The notes below the pieces were generated by a model that was not told the origin of the DNA, ran no database searches, and saw only the letters and a list, made by a program, of their open reading frames with translations. This document shows positions 10,255-22,045 of a stretch of 32,000 nt of DNA, in pieces (within the stretch, counting starts at the first letter, position 1; each line of letters begins with the position of its first letter). Source of the stretch: Pyrodictium abyssi (lineage in GTDB: Archaea > Thermoproteota > Thermoprotei_A > Sulfolobales > Pyrodictiaceae); assembly GCF_036323395.1 (NCBI RefSeq), contig NZ_AP028907.1:2070001-2102000 (forward strand), written 5' to 3'. A program made the translations under genes and the position numbers.

Positions 10255-11208
10255 TCACCCTCCTATGTAGGCTTCTATCACGCGTGGGTCGTTGGCCACC
10301 TTGTGCGGCGGCCCCTCGGCTATGACGCGGCCAGAGTCCATGACAACCACGTTGTCGCAGAGATCCATCACAACCTCTAGGTCGTGCTCCACGAGCACGA
10401 AGGAGATGCCTCGGGTCTCGTTGACCTCCACTATGGCGCGCGCTAGGTCCTCCTTCTCCTCCCTGCTGAGGCCCGCCATAGGCTCGTCCATCAGCACTAC
10501 CTTCGGGTCCTGGGCGAGCGCTCTCGCCAGGTCTACGCGCTTCTGCACACCGGGAGGCAGGCCCTCGACAATCTGGTCCCGGTACTCGTGGAGCTCGAGG
10601 AGGTCGATAGCCCTCTCAGCCTTCTCCCTCGCCCACTCCTCCCAGCGCTGGGCCCGGCGGGTCCAGAACGCGGCGTCTACTATGCTGTAGCGCCTCCACG
10701 GCTCGAGGCCCGTCATGATGTTCTCGGCTACCGTCATGTGCTTGAATAGCTCGCTGTGCTGGAAGGTCCTGGCTAGCCCTAGCTTGGCCCTCGCGTGGGG
10801 CGGGAGCCGGGTGATATCCCTGCCCTCGAACACTACTCTACCGCTCTTCGGCTTGTAGAACCCGGAGACTACGTTCAGGAGGCTGGTCTTGCCCGCCCCG
10901 TTGGGGCCTATTACGGCGAGAATCTCGCCGGGGCGTAGCCTAAAGCCCGCGTTGTCTACGGCTACTATGCCGCCGAACTCTACCCTTATGCCCTCTACTT
11001 CGAGGATGTATTCCAGCTTCCCGTGGGGCTTCTCTCTGTAGGTGCTGCTTTCCTCCCAGAGCGCTCTGTAATCGAACCTGCTCACCTCTATGCGGGGCGC
11101 GTTAGCTGCGAAGAACAAAACGCACCATCTCGCACACCTCCTGGAGTGGTCTTCAGTGTTCCCGGTAGCCCACCACTGTTCGCTACTCTTATTTAAACAC
11201 TCGCCCAA
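10255..11208 (-). CDS. livG: LIV-type ABC transporter ATP-binding protein (LivG-like); start uncertain
   Basis: Walker A GPNGAGKTS, signature-like LPPGVQKRVDLARAL, Walker B VVLMDEP and the C-terminal DPRVIEAYIGG motif typical of LivG. There is no in-frame ATG upstream of the ABC domain. TTG 11208 lies in the AT-rich promoter region, so a later start (for example GTG 11085) is more likely. Confidence 0.88.
   Translation of the reverse strand: MGECLNKSSEQWWATGNTEDHSRRCARWCVLFFAANAPRIEVSRFDYRALWEESSTYREKPHGKLEYILEVEGIRVEFGGIVAVDNAGFRLRPGEILAVIGPNGAGKTSLLNVVSGFYKPKSGRVVFEGRDITRLPPHARAKLGLARTFQHSELFKHMTVAENIMTGLEPWRRYSIVDAAFWTRRAQRWEEWAREKAERAIDLLELHEYRDQIVEGLPPGVQKRVDLARALAQDPKVVLMDEPMAGLSREEKEDLARAIVEVNETRGISFVLVEHDLEVVMDLCDNVVVMDSGRVIAEGPPHKVANDPRVIEAYIGG
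11102..11128 (-). other. SD-led 8-codon mini-ORF (MVRFVLRS) in the liv operon leader
   Basis: GGAGGTG (11135-11141), a 6-nt spacer and ATG 11128, with stop TAA at 11102-11104. It is out of frame with livG and ends 17 nt upstream of the candidate livG GTG 11085. Confidence 0.35.
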
Positions 11209-17434: not shown

Positions 17435-18580
17435 CTAGACTGGCCTTGGATAAGGCGTCTCAGCACGTCGCTCCATGTACTCGTTTATCCAGCGGACTAT
17501 TATGTCCTCGCTGACCTTCTTCATCCTCGGCGCGTTCTCCTTCAGCCTGTCCAGGATGTACTTCACGAGCGCTGGCTCCGGGGTCACGCCGATGCTCTGG
17601 AGAGCCCATTCGACCGCGGCGCGGCCGCTGTGGCGCCCCAGGACTATCCGCCGACGGTTGCCTACAGCCTCGGGCGGCAACGGCTCGTACGTTGCAGGGT
17701 TCTTCAGCACACCGTGCACGTGTATACCAGCCTCGTGGGCGAACGCGTTACGCCCCACAATCGCCTTGTTAGGAGGCGTCTCTACACCGAACTTGCTCGC
17801 CACTAGCCGCGACACGGGCGTTAGCAGCTCCATTCGGATGCCAGTGCTGCGGTCCATGAGGTAGTGTAACGCAGCCACGACCTCCTCTAGCGCGGCGTTG
17901 CCAGCTCTCTCGCCGAACCCGTTCACAGTGACCTGGACGCCGTCTGCCCCCGCCCTAACGCCGGCCAACGTATTAGCAGTAGCCATGCCGAAGTCGTCAT
18001 GGCAGTGTACGTCTATCCAGACCCAGGACGGGAGACTCCTCCTTATGAGGCCCACAAGCCACTCCATATACCAGGGGGTCGCGGTGCCCACGGTGTCCGG
18101 TATGTTTATGTAGCTAGCACCAGCCTCGACAACGCTCCGGTATATCCTAACGAGGAACCCAGGGTCGCTCCTCGTCGCGTCCTCGGCCGAGAATAGGACG
18201 GTAGCGCCGTAGCTCCGCGCCCGCTCGACCGCCTCGACAGCCCGTTCCACCACCTGGTCCCGTGTCATCCTCAGCTTGTACTTCATGTGCACGTCGCTGG
18301 TGGCTATGAACACGTGGATTATGTGTGCTTCAGCCGCTGCCGCCTCGTCCACGTCGCGTGGATGGGCCCTGGCAAGGGCGGCGATCCTGGCTCTAGAGGC
18401 CTCCCTGACAGCTGCTCTCACGGCTCTACGGTCTATCTCGGAGGAGGCGGGGAACCCAGCCTCTATCACGTCGACGCCAAGCTCGTCGAGGGCTCGTAGA
18501 ATCTCTATCTTGTCGTAGAAGTCTAGCTCTATTCCAGGCATCTGGTCTCCGTCACGGAGGGTTGTATCGAAGACCCTTAT
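17435..18580 (-). CDS. leuA: 2-isopropylmalate synthase-family enzyme (IPMS/homocitrate/citramalate synthase), short form; non-canonical start
   Basis: HCHDDFGMATANTLAG, the FIATSDVH region and EAGIHVHG identify the DRE-TIM family. The track start ATG 18541 would remove the in-frame upstream IRVFDTTLRDGDQ. The frame is open back to TGA 18611-18613 with no ATG/GTG/TTG, so I extend it to the ATA codon at 18580-18578 (see findings). Confidence 0.8.
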   Translation of the reverse strand: MRVFDTTLRDGDQMPGIELDFYDKIEILRALDELGVDVIEAGFPASSEIDRRAVRAAVREASRARIAALARAHPRDVDEAAAAEAHIIHVFIATSDVHMKYKLRMTRDQVVERAVEAVERARSYGATVLFSAEDATRSDPGFLVRIYRSVVEAGASYINIPDTVGTATPWYMEWLVGLIRRSLPSWVWIDVHCHDDFGMATANTLAGVRAGADGVQVTVNGFGERAGNAALEEVVAALHYLMDRSTGIRMELLTPVSRLVASKFGVETPPNKAIVGRNAFAHEAGIHVHGVLKNPATYEPLPPEAVGNRRRIVLGRHSGRAAVEWALQSIGVTPEPALVKYILDRLKENAPRMKKVSEDIIVRWINEYMERRAETPYPRPV

Positions 18581-18604
18581 GCGAGTTCCATTTTCGACTG
18601 CACC
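18581..18604 (-). promoter_or_regulatory. 24-nt leader cassette, leuA copy (GGTGCAGTCGAAAATGGAACTCGC on the minus strand)
   Basis: It is the exact reverse complement of plus-strand 18857-18880. It is extended 5' to a full GGAGGTG (18601-18607) and contains ATG 18591-18589, which opens MELA-stop (18591..18577). Confidence 0.6.
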
Positions 18605-18670
18605 TCCGTCTCATGCCCGATGGAGTTCCGGCTTCTTGGCTGGGCCGGGGACACCGGGTGCCCACAACCG

Positions 18671-18724
18671 TCTATTTAAGCGTTGCCTTCCGCATTTTGG
18701 AGTTATACGGAAAACGTTTTAATA
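18671..18724. promoter_or_regulatory. candidate divergent TATA boxes for leuA (CTTAAATAGA on minus, 18671-18680) and ilvB (TTTTAATA, 18717-18724)
   Basis: These are the only AT-rich boxes in the 310-nt leuA-ilvB spacer. The assignment is positional only. Confidence 0.35.
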
Positions 18725-18800
18725 GGGGAAGCCGGTGGGCAGGCCTACCCGACGCCCTTCTAGGCCGCTAGGCGGCTCCGCCAGACCGGAGGTGGTCTCG

Positions 18801-18821
18801 ATGTCAAACGTCCCCATGTAG
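18801..18821 (+). other. SD-led mini-ORF 1 in the ilvB leader (MSNVPM)
   Basis: GGAGGTG at 18788-18794, a 6-nt spacer, ATG 18801 and stop TAG at 18819-18821. Confidence 0.4.
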
Positions 18822-18836
18822 CTGGAGGTGGTCCAG

Positions 18837-18854
18837 ATGTCAAACATTATGTGA
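18837..18854 (+). other. SD-led mini-ORF 2 in the ilvB leader (MSNIM)
   Basis: GGAGGTG at 18824-18830, a 6-nt spacer and ATG 18837. The stop TGA 18852-18854 overlaps the in-frame GTG 18851 of the ilvB ORF. Confidence 0.4.
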
Positions 18855-20629
18855 GGGGTGCAGTCGAAAATGGAACTCGCGTGGTAGACCACATAGCCCG
18901 TGTTCTAAAAGACCTGGGCGCCACCCAGGTCTTCGGGGTAACCGGCGGCAGCATAATGGGGCTCTTCGACGCGCTAGCGCTCGAGGACTTCGAGATCTAC
19001 ATGTTCCGCCATGAGCAGGGAGCGGCGCACGCAGCCGACGCCTACGGCAGGATAGCCCGCAGGCCGGGAATAGCACTAGCAACAAGCGGCCCAGGCGCCA
19101 CGAACCTTGTAACCGGCATAGCTAACGCCTACTTCGACTCCGCGCCCATGCTGGCTATCACCGGGCAGGTACCGACAAGCGTCTTCGGCCGCGACGCCTT
19201 CCAGGAGACAGACATCGTGGGCGTAACGGCGCCGATAACCAAGTTCGCCTACCAGGTGAAGAGGCCAGAAGAAGCCGGCCCGGCCATAAGAACGGCGTAC
19301 AGGCTCGCGGTCGAGGGGAGGCCTGGCCCCACTCTCATCGACCTACCCAGAGACGTGCAGCTAGTACGCTACGAGCCAGTGGACGAGCCCGAGTATCTCC
19401 CAATAGACTTCGCCAAGTATCAGCCGCCGAAGCCCGACCCGGAGGCTGTTGCTAGCGCTGCACGCCTACTACTCGCGGCGGCAAGGCCCGTAATCCTGGT
19501 CGGTGCTGGTGTATACTGGTCCGGGGCTACAGCCGAGGTCATAGAGCTCGCTGAGCGGCTACAGGCGCCCATAGTGACAACACTCCCCGGCAAGAATGCT
19601 GTCCCTGCAGACCACCCCCTAGTGCTAGGCCCAGCTGGGATGCACGGCCGTGCAGAAGCGGACGCTGCTCTCGCTAACGCCGACGTAGTGCTCGCTGTAG
19701 GCACTAGGTTCTCCGACCGTACCGTTGGCAGGTTTGGGCCAGAGCTACGCGAGAAGAAGATAATCCACATAGACATCGACCCCAGTGAGCACGGCAAGAA
19801 CGTGCCACCAGCTGTGAGCATTGTGGCTGATGCGCGGGAGGCGCTCCAGGCAATACTCCGCGAGATGAAGGTGGTGCCTAAGCGCGACGGGAGGTTCATC
19901 GAGTGGCTGCTCTGGATACGCCGCCGCTACGAGGACGCTATGGAGAAGCTAGCGGCCCGGATGAGGAAGTTCGCGCCCTGGAAGGTGTTGAAGACGCTCA
20001 GGCAGGCAGTGCCGCGCAATACGATAACCGTCACTGGTGTGGGCAGCCACCAGATGTGGTCAGAGATACACTGGGACGTATACGTGCCCGGCACCTGGGT
20101 GACGAGCGCAGGCCTAGGCACGATGGGGTTCTGTGTCCCGGCAGCGCTCGGCGCCAAGATAGCTGCGAGGGACCGCCCAGTACTCTGCATCGATGGCGAC
20201 GGGAGCTTCCAGATGACTATGAATAACCTGGCCCTCGTGAGGGACTACGACCTACCCATAATAGTGACAGTATTCGACAACCGTGCGCTCATGCTGGTAA
20301 AGCAGTGGCAGATATTCCTCTACGACCGGAGGATAGTAGCTACCGAGTACAGCAAGTGGCCCGACTTCACGAAGATAGCTGAGGCCTACGGGATAGAGGC
20401 GATACGCCCAGCAAGCCTAGAGGAGATCAACGCAGCAGTACGCCGCGCTATCCGGAACAATGAGCCCCTCATAGTAGTGGTGGACATAGACAACAACGAG
20501 GACATAGTGCTGCCATGGGTGAAGCCCGGCGACTGGCTGACAGACGCGATACTGCCGCCCGGGATGGAGGATGTCAGCCTCGTTTTCCGCGAGGAGAAGC
20601 TAACAGCTGCCCCCGCAGCTGGGAGGTGA
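18851..20629 (+). CDS. ilvB: acetolactate synthase (acetohydroxyacid synthase) large subunit
   Basis: ThDP-enzyme motifs: VFGVTGGS, HEQGAAHAADAYGR and IDGDGSFQMTMNNLA. Family N-termini align from about GTG 18881 (VDHIARVLKDLG...). Whether GTG 18851 or GTG 18881 is used is unresolved. Confidence 0.9.
   Translation: MRGAVENGTRVVDHIARVLKDLGATQVFGVTGGSIMGLFDALALEDFEIYMFRHEQGAAHAADAYGRIARRPGIALATSGPGATNLVTGIANAYFDSAPMLAITGQVPTSVFGRDAFQETDIVGVTAPITKFAYQVKRPEEAGPAIRTAYRLAVEGRPGPTLIDLPRDVQLVRYEPVDEPEYLPIDFAKYQPPKPDPEAVASAARLLLAAARPVILVGAGVYWSGATAEVIELAERLQAPIVTTLPGKNAVPADHPLVLGPAGMHGRAEADAALANADVVLAVGTRFSDRTVGRFGPELREKKIIHIDIDPSEHGKNVPPAVSIVADAREALQAILREMKVVPKRDGRFIEWLLWIRRRYEDAMEKLAARMRKFAPWKVLKTLRQAVPRNTITVTGVGSHQMWSEIHWDVYVPGTWVTSAGLGTMGFCVPAALGAKIAARDRPVLCIDGDGSFQMTMNNLALVRDYDLPIIVTVFDNRALMLVKQWQIFLYDRRIVATEYSKWPDFTKIAEAYGIEAIRPASLEEINAAVRRAIRNNEPLIVVVDIDNNEDIVLPWVKPGDWLTDAILPPGMEDVSLVFREEKLTAAPAAGR
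18857..18880 (+). promoter_or_regulatory. 24-nt leader cassette, ilvB copy (GGTGCAGTCGAAAATGGAACTCGC)
   Basis: It is the perfect inverted-repeat partner of 18581-18604. It contains ATG 18870, which opens MELAW-stop (18870..18887), and it ends directly before GTG 18881. Confidence 0.6.
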
Positions 20630-20635
20630 TAGCTC

Positions 20636-20887
20636 GTGGCCAGCCAGTGCACCGGGATATACGTGATAGAGGTATCCGCGTTCAACGGGATGGACGCCGT
20701 AATGAGGCTAAGCAATATGGCGCGCCGAGCTAAGCTAGAGTACCGCAACATATCCGCCAGCTTCGATGGCAGAGTGGTCCGGCTGAGAATAGAAGCGGCT
20801 GGCGAGGAGAAGGAGGTACACTGGCTAGCAGCCAAGATGGAGAGGATGCCCGAGGTCTACGCGGTAGCAGCCAAGAGGCTATCGTGA
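20636..20887 (+). CDS. ilvN: acetolactate synthase small (regulatory) subunit, short single-ACT form
   Basis: 83-aa ORF 6 nt after the ilvB stop, with a strong SD (GGGAGGTGAT) 5 nt before the GTG. It has an ACT-like beta-alpha-beta pattern. The call rests mainly on position and size. Confidence 0.7.
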   Translation: MASQCTGIYVIEVSAFNGMDAVMRLSNMARRAKLEYRNISASFDGRVVRLRIEAAGEEKEVHWLAAKMERMPEVYAVAAKRLS

Positions 20888-20930: not shown

Positions 20931-21061
20931 CACTACTTTCTTGAGTGCAAGGCCTCTCTCCCCACAAACCTACAGCTATATGGATACTTATACCATATGT
21001 CTATGGTATTGTGAGTCGAGGTGGGAAGCCTCGGATACGAGGAGTCGGGGGTGGAGACACC

Positions 21062-22045
21062 GTGGCGAGGATATACACAGACCAGGATGCTAGCCTAGAT
21101 CCGCTCCGTGACAAGACCATAGCGGTAATAGGCTACGGTAGCCAGGGCCGTGCCCAGGCCCTCAACCTCCGCGATAGCGGGCTAGACGTCATAATAGGGC
21201 TTAGGCCGGGGAAGAGCTGGGAGCTCGCCGAGAAAGAGGGGTTCAAGGTATACCGGGTGGACGAGGCGGTCAAACGGGCGGACGTAGTAATGATGCTCAT
21301 ACCCGACATGGTCCAGCCCGAGGTCTGGAAGAACCAGGTGGAGCCACACCTACGCGAGGGCATGACGGTGGACTTCGCCCACGGCTTCACGGTGCACTAC
21401 GGCCTAATCAAGCCGCCCGAGTACGTGGACGTCGTCATGGTGGCGCCTAAGAGCCCTGGCGCTAAGGTCCGTGAGGAGTTTGTCGCGGGCCGCGGCGTAC
21501 CAGCCCTCGTAGCAGTATACCAGGACTATACCAGCCGTGCCCTGGAGACCGCTCTCGCCATAGCTAAGGGCATTGGGGCGACGCGGGCGGGCGTCATAGA
21601 GACCACTTTCAAGGAGGAGACAGAGACGGACCTCATAGGCGAACAGACGGTGCTCGTCGGCGGGCTCATGGAGCTGATAAAGAAGGGCTTCGAGACACTC
21701 GTGGAGCTGGGCTACCAGCCCGAGGTAGCGTACTTCGAGGTACTCAACGAGGCCAAGCTGATAATGGACCTCATATGGAGGTACGGTATCACGGGCATGC
21801 TGGAAAGGGTCTCCGTCACGGCTCGCTACGGCGGCCTGACAGTAGGGCCGAAGATCATAGACGACAGGGTCAAGGAGAACATGAAGAAGGCTGCTGAGCG
21901 GGTACGCAGCGGCGAGTTCGCCAAGGAGTGGGTGGAGGAGTACAGGAAGGGGATGCCGAGGCTTCAGAAGCTCCTCGAGGAGACGCGGAGCCACGAGATA
22001 GAGCGCGTGGGCAAGGAGATGCGCCGCCTCCTCTTCGGTGGCTAG
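21062..22045 (+). CDS. ilvC: ketol-acid reductoisomerase (class I)
   Basis: [36 protein letters not shown] matches the class I KARI N-terminus and Rossmann motif. GTG 21062 is preceded by GGGGGTGGAG. The track ATG 20945 adds 39 non-homologous codons that cover the AT-rich promoter region 20973-21012. Confidence 0.92.

Follow-up and report, generated by a model that had tools for sequence, protein, structure and literature searches.

Why does the leader of ilvB, the first gene of a branched-chain amino-acid operon in Pyrodictium abyssi, hold short open reading frames (ORFs), each led by a Shine-Dalgarno (SD) sequence and each carrying a Val, Ile or Leu codon? We addressed this question in a stretch of 32,000 nucleotides (nt) from contig NZ_AP028907.1 (positions 2,070,001 to 2,102,000), hereafter the window, in which ilvB diverges from an isopropylmalate-synthase-like (IPMS-like) gene whose leader carries a micro-ORF of similar make. 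To our knowledge, no leader-ORF mechanism of amino-acid sensing is established in Archaea. The answer we favor, with a probability of roughly 0.4, is a naturally occurring frameshift switch that responds to hungry codons and governs how Crenarchaeota make branched-chain amino acids, built from micro-ORFs here and from a leaderless upstream ORF (uORF) in Pyrobaculum. We infer the transcript ends, the translation of the micro-ORFs, the frameshift and its dependence on amino acids from sequence comparison.

The ilvB leader contains two repeats, GGAGGTGGTCTCGATGTCAAAC (18788-18809) and GGAGGTGGTCCAGATGTCAAAC (18824-18845), identical at 20 of 22 positions with a period of 36 nt. An earlier note on this DNA had pointed out these repeats and their perfect SDs, and direct reading together with a repeat finder reproduced its account exactly, as was the case for the coordinates of the two micro-ORFs that they open, MSNVPM-stop (ATG TCA AAC GTC CCC ATG TAG) and MSNIM-stop (ATG TCA AAC ATT ATG TGA). 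Each repeat heads what we term an S unit (Table 1), whose micro-ORF starts 6 nt past GGAGGTG. Allowing up to two mismatches, the S-unit pattern occurs at these 2 places in the window and at no other, with 0 matches in 100 dinucleotide shuffles; the pair is far beyond chance. Elsewhere in the window, GGAGGTG followed after 6-9 nt by a start codon marks the real internal starts of genes (ilvN, leuC and the ABC-transporter genes), so the translation signals of the mini-ORFs equal those of real genes, a likeness that the earlier note had drawn from the transporter genes. The same note had placed a GTG at 18851 in frame with the ilvB ORF, which is correct. This codon is GTA in L001, a 97%-identical relative, and is therefore not a conserved start, and we rejected it as the start of ilvB.

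A second kind of unit, the C unit, is built on a 24-nt cassette, GGTGCAGTCGAAAATGGAACTCGC, that forms a perfect inverted repeat (18581-18604 and 18857-18880) found nowhere else in the window and in 0 of 100 shuffles. Because ilvB and the IPMS-like gene diverge, both mRNAs carry the cassette in the same sense, directly 5' of the enzyme core. The cassette unit consists of GGAGGTG, a 9-nt spacer and a micro-ORF of the form xTG GAA CTC GC. (the last base being variable). On the ilvB side this micro-ORF, MELAW-stop, proved to be the third mini-ORF that had been said to precede or overlap the ilvB start; it overlaps the nominal start, GTG 18881. All units lie in the putative 5' leader of an operon for the amino acids that they encode, between a TATA-like box and either ilvB-ilvN-ilvC-ilvD or the IPMS-like gene, leuB and leuC, and their putative sensor codons match the logic of the pathway, with Ile and Leu (and Val) on the ilvB side and Leu on the IPMS-like side. 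Transcription of ilvB is predicted to start at ~18747, ~40 nt 5' of the first SD. In every relative a TATA-like box stands 51-136 nt 5' of the first unit, a position that fits the long ilvB leader suggested earlier.

We collected comparison loci by an ilvB protein search with contig look-ups and by scanning 185,579 species genomes for the cassette, which gave a set of 12 distinct Pyrodictiaceae/Desulfurococcales lineages, with 75-97% ilvB identity, in addition to Pyrobaculum and one further lineage; a metagenome scan with the ilvB protein returned mostly bacterial acetolactate synthases, the useful loci being L007-L009 (Pyrobaculum-type) only. The Ile version of the S unit is present in 12 of 12 lineages, with the consensus GGAGGTG, 6 nt, ATG/TTG NNA AAC ATT NNN stop. 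SD, spacing, start, length and in-frame stop are kept across the 12 lineages, in line with the conservation on which the earlier idea had been staked. The 15 S units (12 Ile and 3 Val) start with ATG in nine cases, TTG in five and TCG in one (L176); TAA, TAG and TGA all serve as stops, at a constant position, while codon 5 is free. The 21 C units have ATG, GTG or TTG as start, then GAA, then CTC (19) or GTC (2). On the IPMS-like side, a single Leu unit is found in all ten lineages for which that side was available. Overall, ilvB leaders carry Ile and Leu codons in all lineages and a Val codon in addition in 5 of the 12, and the leuA-type leader carries Leu only. The micro-ORFs are, in our judgment, very probably genuine conserved translational elements.

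The Val units and the cassette copies also bear traces of their origin. The Val version of the S unit is confined to the window, L001 and L002, and is evidently a recent 36-nt duplication. In L004 (3925-3990) and L005 (4108-4169), a tandem second cassette on the ilvB side, with periods of 36 and 27 nt, respectively, has CTC (Leu) changed to GTC (Val); to judge from these copies, the Val unit arose twice, from different unit types. Cassette copies of one genome are more alike than orthologous copies (window, L002, L004 and L005), and the variable codon is shared by both copies (GTC in the window, GCC in L002, GCT in L005). This likeness within genomes points to gene conversion between inverted copies ~250-300 bp apart, which would explain the perfect repeat in the window.

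Such concerted evolution, and the perfect 24-nt inverted repeat on either side of the divergent promoter region (252 nt), could also suggest an element that acts at the level of DNA, whether as operator repeats bound by a transcription factor or as an inverted repeat belonging to a miniature inverted-repeat transposable element (MITE) or an invertible promoter, the mini-ORFs then being incidental. An element of this sort would not keep start and stop codons of varying identity, ORF length or frame phase, and we regard it as extremely improbable. We rejected a MITE on finding the cassette in three Pyrodictiaceae/Hyperthermus genomes among the 185,579 scanned, in two or three copies confined to the leuA/ilvB locus, thus at one locus per genome, and with no target-site duplication visible. 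An invertible promoter was likewise rejected, since the S units lie on the ilvB side in all 12 assemblies and no inverted form was seen. The motif AAACATT, tried as the promoter of a leaderless ilvB mRNA, lies ~39-48 nt from the start, a distance that does not suit it, and better TATA boxes stand upstream.

The phase of the units points in another direction. Relative to the main ORF, S and C micro-ORFs without exception occupy frame +1. From S unit to ilvB core, the distances are 86, 89, 98, 122 and 134 nt (125 and 134 nt for Val units), all of them 2 mod 3, and from unit to enzyme core the main frame is free of stops in all lineages, compared with 1-6 stops in the micro-ORF frame, the zero frame ending 1-3 codons past the putative slip site. 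Indels in the leader alignment (9, 9 and 12 nt) are all multiples of 3. Entropy across the leader, taken by main-frame codon position, is 0.78, 0.82 and 1.31, making the third position the most variable, and the Arg codon that precedes the nominal ilvB start varies synonymously among CGC, CGT and CGA. From these patterns, the main frame looks to be translated 5' of the nominal starts.

Many of these genes lack a canonical start codon. For ilvB, none is present in L115, L174, L172, L176 and L177, as opposed to a canonical GTG or ATG near the C-unit stop in the window, L001, L002, L004, L005, L125 and L173; for the IPMS-like gene, none is present in the window, L001, L125 and L174. The window's IPMS-like frame has no ATG, GTG or TTG from an in-frame TGA (~18613-18611) to the catalytic DTTLRDGDQ, so ORF finders begin at ATG 18541 and remove essential residues. 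The same misplaced start is seen in Pyrodictium occultum and in Pyrobaculum aerophilum IM2, where the database entry is named 'with possible unusual start codon', and among Thermoprotei clusters ~46 of 120 for ilvB and 29 of 96 for LeuA-type proteins are called N-terminally truncated. We rejected an N-terminal extension from an upstream in-frame start as a general explanation: 5' of the units, the window, L001 and L177 have a stop in frame and lack a start; on the leuA side, L004 and L176 have a TAA within the cassette frame.

The junction between the last micro-ORF and the enzyme gene could instead serve a relay of termination and reinitiation, in which ribosomes ending on the last micro-ORF restart at the adjacent SD-less main start, and the Val, Ile and Leu codons are incidental or modulate flux by stalling. 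The C-unit stop overlaps, or lies 2 nt past, the codon after the cassette in every lineage, with a textbook ATGA overlap in L002, GTGGTAG in the window and ATAA, GTAA or GTAG elsewhere; the nominal GTG of ilvB has no SD within range, and the next SD follows within a few nt of each S-unit stop. However, roughly half of the restart positions hold ATA or GTA, and in L177 the codon is absent. A relay would leave unexplained why the S-unit phase is fixed and the frame to ilvB open over five spacer lengths, why the Arg codon 5' of the restart codon is conserved synonymously and why the third base alone of S codon 2 is invariant, and in Pyrobaculum main-frame residues 5' of the uORF stop are conserved without a start codon. 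Stalling at hungry codons would, moreover, cut enzyme synthesis under starvation, which is the wrong sign. We therefore consider the relay unlikely, and it is in our estimate an even call that translation enters the main ORFs from the micro-ORFs by way of a -1 frame change.

The bases held constant in the units suggest how such a change might occur. In S codon 2 (TCA, CCA or TTA), the third-position A alone is fixed, which creates A_AAC; in the cassette, GAA, a rare Glu codon (18 of 344), follows the G of the start codon, creating G_GAA. The Ile codon of the S unit, ATT, accounts for 8 of 259 Ile codons in the window, fewer than any other. In S and C units alike, 12 nt separate the end of the SD from the putative slip codon, despite spacers of 6 and 9 nt. 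Across these putative slip sites, the invariant bases are those required by a slip, not those that coding for a peptide would keep. The 12-nt distance falls within the 9-14 nt that separate SD-like stimulators from shift sites of the bacterial type (PMC5009743); SD stimulation of -1 shifts works over this range, and a single SD can serve for initiation and for stimulation alike (PMC5009743). Slippage in the P site next to a vacant A site ('hungry' frameshifting) is established and needs no 3' structure (PMC8211752), and A_AAC-type sites belong to the shift-prone sequences in eukaryotic systems.

Under the switch that we propose, a strong SD would load a ribosome onto a micro-ORF start in the leader of ilvBNCD or of the IPMS-like (leuA-leuB-leuC) operon, and after 1-2 codons the slip-prone codon (AAC after A, or GAA after G) would occupy the P site, while the A site would hold a codon for Val, Ile or Leu. 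With the cognate charged tRNA in good supply, the ribosome would read on and terminate 1-3 codons later, having made a useless peptide of 4-6 residues. If this tRNA were scarce, the empty A site would allow the peptidyl-tRNA to slip by -1 (A_AAC to AAA, G_GAA to GGA), assisted by the SD:anti-SD duplex held 12 nt upstream, and the slipped ribosome would continue in the -1 frame, in which the enzyme gene lies open. A shortage of Val, Ile or Leu would in this manner turn on ilvB, and a shortage of Leu would do so for the leuA-type gene. Some basal expression may come in addition from termination and reinitiation where the cassette is followed by a canonical GTG, as it is at ilvB in the window. 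The predicted trans-frame peptides are MSNHYVR, MSNRPHVAGGGPDVK, METR-VVDHIAR and METR-IR-VFDTTLR in the window's lineage, and MSGGIGAYSGDSK, MSGVSGAYSGDSK and ...LTRGDSK for P. aerophilum IlvB. The probability of about 0.4 given at the outset applies to this full amino-acid-sensing model, in which hungry codons would send ribosomes by -1 frameshifting out of the micro-ORFs and into the biosynthetic genes.

Table 1. Features of the divergent ilvB and IPMS-like leaders; positions are those of the window, and minus-strand components are given in the direction of reading.
Feature	Position	Strand	Components	Putative slip site	Sensor codon
S(Val) unit	18788-18821	+	SD GGAGGTG(GTCT) 18788-18798; micro-ORF MSNVPM-stop 18801-18821	A_AAC 18806-18809	GTC (Val) 18810-18812
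S(Ile) unit	18824-18854	+	SD GGAGGTG(GTCC) 18824-18834; micro-ORF MSNIM-stop 18837-18854	A_AAC 18842-18845	ATT (Ile) 18846-18848
C(Leu) unit, ilvB side	18853-18887	+	SD-like GAGGGGTG 18853-18860; cassette arm 18857-18880; micro-ORF MELAW-stop 18870-18887	G_GAA 18872-18875	CTC (Leu) 18876-18878
C(Leu) unit, IPMS-like side	18577-18607	-	SD GGAGGTG 18607-18601; cassette arm 18604-18581; micro-ORF MELA-stop 18591-18577	G_GAA 18589-18586	CTC (Leu) 18585-18583
ilvB main reading frame	18764-20629	+	open from just past TAG 18761-18763, across three units; stop 20629		
IPMS-like gene	17435-18586	-	main frame begins ACT CGC ATA AGG GTC TTC GAT (TRIRVFDTTLRDG...)		
TATA-like box TTTTAATA	18717-18724	+	putative ilvB promoter		
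TATA-like box CTTAAATAG	18673-18681	-	putative, purely inferred promoter of the IPMS-like operon		

Pyrobaculum offers a leader of wholly different design, which in our reading is an independent convergence on the same arrangement. In P. aerophilum ilvB (L178-L180, 1448-1495), a TATA box lies 30 nt 5' of an ATG that opens a uORF in the +1 frame, MSGVSGLTRGIQNEL-stop (ATG TCG GGG GTA TCG GGG CTT ACT CGG GGG ATT CAA AAC GAG TTG TAG), and G_GGG, which would be a perfect slip site, stands before each of GTA (Val), CTT (Leu) and ATT (Ile). P. aerophilum transcripts are reported to be leaderless (PMC2151090), and this uORF is probably leaderless as well; L007-L009 have a uORF of the same kind. In Pyrobaculum, the ilvB main frame is devoid of ATG, GTG and TTG, and the protein in the database begins at CTG. 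Comparing three Pyrobaculum sequences, we counted synonymous to non-synonymous changes of 5:2 in the uORF frame and 0:7 in the main frame before the Ile codon, and of 29:10 in the main frame and 6:35 in the uORF frame after it; the stretch of main frame under selection includes a part 5' of the uORF stop, where the main frame is without a start. By these counts, the frame under purifying selection switches at the putative Pyrobaculum slip sites. The lengths of the G runs are identical in three P. aerophilum assemblies, which argues against phase variation at the DNA level. Further sites of this kind were found in L177, with G_GGC CTG and G_GGG CTA in a second +1 ORF, and in L181, with G_GAA GTA. 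Among Thermoproteales LeuA-type proteins, a 'G[FIV]GAR' motif in the main frame corresponds to TCG GGG CTC GC in the +1 frame, a match at the protein level only.

The frame evidence would be the same if recoding were constitutive, with a -1 shift or its equivalent occurring at a fixed ratio independent of amino-acid supply and, in Pyrobaculum, possibly arising from transcriptional slippage, for which the runs of four to five G residues there could provide the substrate for the polymerase. The codon past the slip site would then be hydrophobic by chance or through constraints on the sequence, and NTN codons are all hydrophobic, which also suits such recoding. A fixed ratio would not, however, account for an A-site codon of Val, Ile or Leu in every unit class and in two unrelated leader designs, matched to the pathway, nor for the retention of the rare codons ATT and GAA, and the Pyrodictiaceae sites have no homopolymer run, so that transcriptional slippage is ruled out there. 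Constitutive recoding is in our view distinctly unlikely.

Several observations weigh against a frameshift switch in its full form. The 12 lineages are related, so the unit counts are not independent, and L176 has no start codon in its S unit (TCG). Val units occur in only 5 of the 12 lineages, and, NTN codons all being hydrophobic, a fixed central T alone could yield the Val/Ile/Leu pattern. The putative slip sites are tetranucleotides, with no X_XXY_YYZ heptamer present, and A_AAC and G_GAA allow only imperfect re-pairing in the P site, the former (to AAA) needing a wobble mismatch and the latter (to GGA) a G.U pair at the middle position; G_GGG alone is perfect. We looked for a 3' stimulatory stem-loop or pseudoknot, of the kind placed 5-9 nt downstream of programmed shift sites, and found no stable or conserved structure in the leaders. 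In the Pyrodictiaceae leader, the synonymous to non-synonymous ratio is 15:45 in the main frame as compared with 7:48 and 4:55 in the other frames, a modest excess. The ilvB gene of the window and of five further lineages has GTG or ATG directly after the cassette, so that a frameshift is not required there. Finally, the constant position of the zero-frame stop and the invariant cassette part GGTGCAG..GAAA are not specifically explained by the switch.

Short, SD-led ORFs with pathway-matched codons in the long leaders of biosynthetic operons recall leader-peptide attenuation of the bacterial ilvGMEDA, ilvBN and leu operons, in which a short translated ORF contains codons for the end product and the ribosome reads the supply of charged tRNA; the uORF of Corynebacterium ilvBNC is reportedly counted with these systems. 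The archaeal units share the multivalent logic, with Val, Ile and Leu for ilv and Leu for leu. They differ in having one regulatory codon per ORF in place of a run, several micro-ORFs with SDs of their own and no terminator, antiterminator or U-run, and their proposed output is a change of frame, unlike the transcriptional read-through of the bacterial systems.

Classical control of that type, in which a pausing ribosome remodels the leader so as to expose a start or prevent termination, was what the earlier note had in mind. Pairings exist that might serve it, namely a possible 6-bp pairing of the S-unit GUGGUC with GACCAC of ilvB codons 3-4, and a palindrome, CGCGTGGTAGACCACGCG, across the ilvB start in several relatives. 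Neither shows covariation among the relatives. The two leaders fold no better than shuffles (z of +0.72 and -0.29), and the consensus fold reaches -5.9 kcal/mol with 0 compensatory pairs. There is no T-run in 18745-18905. Searched against Rfam, the whole window gave 0 hits at gathering thresholds and the stretch 18500-18960 only sub-threshold chance hits, and a tRNA scan found nothing. No ORF has tandem regulatory codons, and remodeling would leave the frame relations and the absent start codons unexplained. We therefore rate classical control as very improbable. Of the earlier idea, what stands is that the micro-ORFs look translated and carry pathway-matched codons, and its Val/Ile/Leu pattern, which its author had thought might be coincidence, is largely kept: Ile in all 12 lineages and Leu in every IPMS-side cassette, two ilvB-side cassettes having GTC. 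On mechanism, in the sense of attenuation, the idea is probably wrong, and the note passed over the features that point elsewhere, namely the constant +1 phase of the micro-ORFs, the main frame that stays open across the leader, the absent canonical starts and the slip-prone bases ahead of each regulatory codon.

A closer precedent for the switch is regulatory frameshifting of the RF2 type, in which a codon decoded slowly in the A site allows the tRNA in the P site to slip, an SD:anti-SD duplex formed upstream within the translating ribosome stimulates the shift (PMC5009743), and the efficiency of shifting both reflects how much of the A-site decoding factor is available and determines how much downstream product is made (PMC5009743). 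The proposed shift differs in being -1, with the SD 12 nt away as against 3 nt, and in that the A site would hold a sense codon decoded by Val-, Ile- or Leu-tRNA; its zero frame is a leader micro-ORF of 4-6 codons, its sensors are arranged in series, and its host is archaeal. Hungry-codon leftward frameshifting in Escherichia coli (Gallant and Lindsley 1992), with slippage of one tRNA in the P site, resembles it in the limitation for an aminoacyl-tRNA, the -1 slip of the peptidyl-tRNA to a near-cognate codon that overlaps the first, and the lack of need for a 3' structure (PMC8211752). The E. coli case is an error or laboratory phenomenon, whereas here a designed route to an enzyme is proposed; a 2016 review knew of no natural hungry-codon frameshifting with functional trans-frame products (PMC5009743).

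Other -1 shifts are similar in part. In E. coli dnaX and in the IS911/IS3 transposases an SD-like stimulator lies 9-14 nt upstream, and in one IS element a single SD is both initiator and stimulator. These systems rely on tandem slippage at a heptanucleotide and on 3' hairpins and set a product ratio, in contrast to the tetranucleotide P-site slip and regulatory codon proposed here. The fucA1 gene of Saccharolobus solfataricus, the only archaeal case of programmed -1 ribosomal frameshifting reported, is a crenarchaeal cellular gene that requires a -1 shift for the full-length enzyme, as proposed for the genes studied here. Its site, A_AAA_AAT, differs in lying in mid-gene, with rare codons and a stem-loop, and it has neither a micro-ORF nor a link to amino-acid sensing.

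The genes around the leaders are those of a branched-chain amino-acid locus. The plus-strand operon runs ilvB-ilvN-ilvC-ilvD. The ilvB ORF is called as 18851-20629, and from the nominal start GTG 18881 it encodes 582 amino acids; the product scores above the cut-off of the acetolactate synthase large subunit model TIGR00118. The divergent operon on the minus strand begins with the gene of an HMGL-type synthase, after which come a leuB-like and a leuC-like gene. The synthase has its top scores with isopropylmalate-synthase models, yet these are under the equivalog cut-offs, and RIRVFDTTLRDG, from its product, aligns with the solved isopropylmalate synthase 3RMJ from residue 2. The ilvB start region is palindromic: L004, L125 and L173 have CGCGTGGTAGACCACGCG with an 8-bp stem, and the window has only GTGGTAGACCAC at 18878-18895.

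Some observations concern genes further along these operons. The 3' part of ilvN contains a direct repeat of 25 nt (20813-20837 and 20852-20876, 80% identical, spaced by 39 nt). The mechanical ilvC ORF (20945-22045) is ~40 codons too long at its 5' end, the KARI_N domain beginning at residue 54; an alternative start, with GGGGGTG at 21047, 8 nt and GTG, gives 327 amino acids, and the calls in relatives are 329-340 amino acids long. In L004, an ATPase gene (AAA_16/ATPase_2, 417-1568) separates the aconitase-like gene from the leuB-like one, and the latter is called as a fragment of 97 amino acids only, which suggests a disrupted leu cluster in that lineage. A putative branched-chain amino-acid transporter operon on the minus strand (~11196-11102) has a TATA-like GTTTAAATAAG, then AGGAGGTG, 6 nt and a further SD-led micro-ORF, MVRFVLRS-stop (ATG GTG CGT TTT GTT CTT CGC AGC TAA, 11128-11102, minus strand). 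It heads an ABC-ATPase-like gene, its codons include Val, Val and Leu, and with respect to the long ORF 10255-11208 its frame is +2 rather than +1.

If the switch exists as proposed, it would be the first natural hungry-codon frameshifting to give a functional product and the first amino-acid-sensing leader-ORF mechanism in Archaea, and it would account for the genes long noted for an 'unusual start codon'. It would also settle an annotation problem in Thermoprotei, where ilvB and leuA-type genes are called as truncated, as over-extended or with an 'unusual' start. The loci supply concrete, mutable sequences and predicted peptides. Should the frameshift reading fail, conserved arrays of SD-led micro-ORFs with pathway-matched codons would still be a new kind of archaeal 5' leader. 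On any reading, the locus points to RF2-type frameshifting or to sensing by leader ORFs, neither of which has been described in Archaea for amino-acid biosynthesis.

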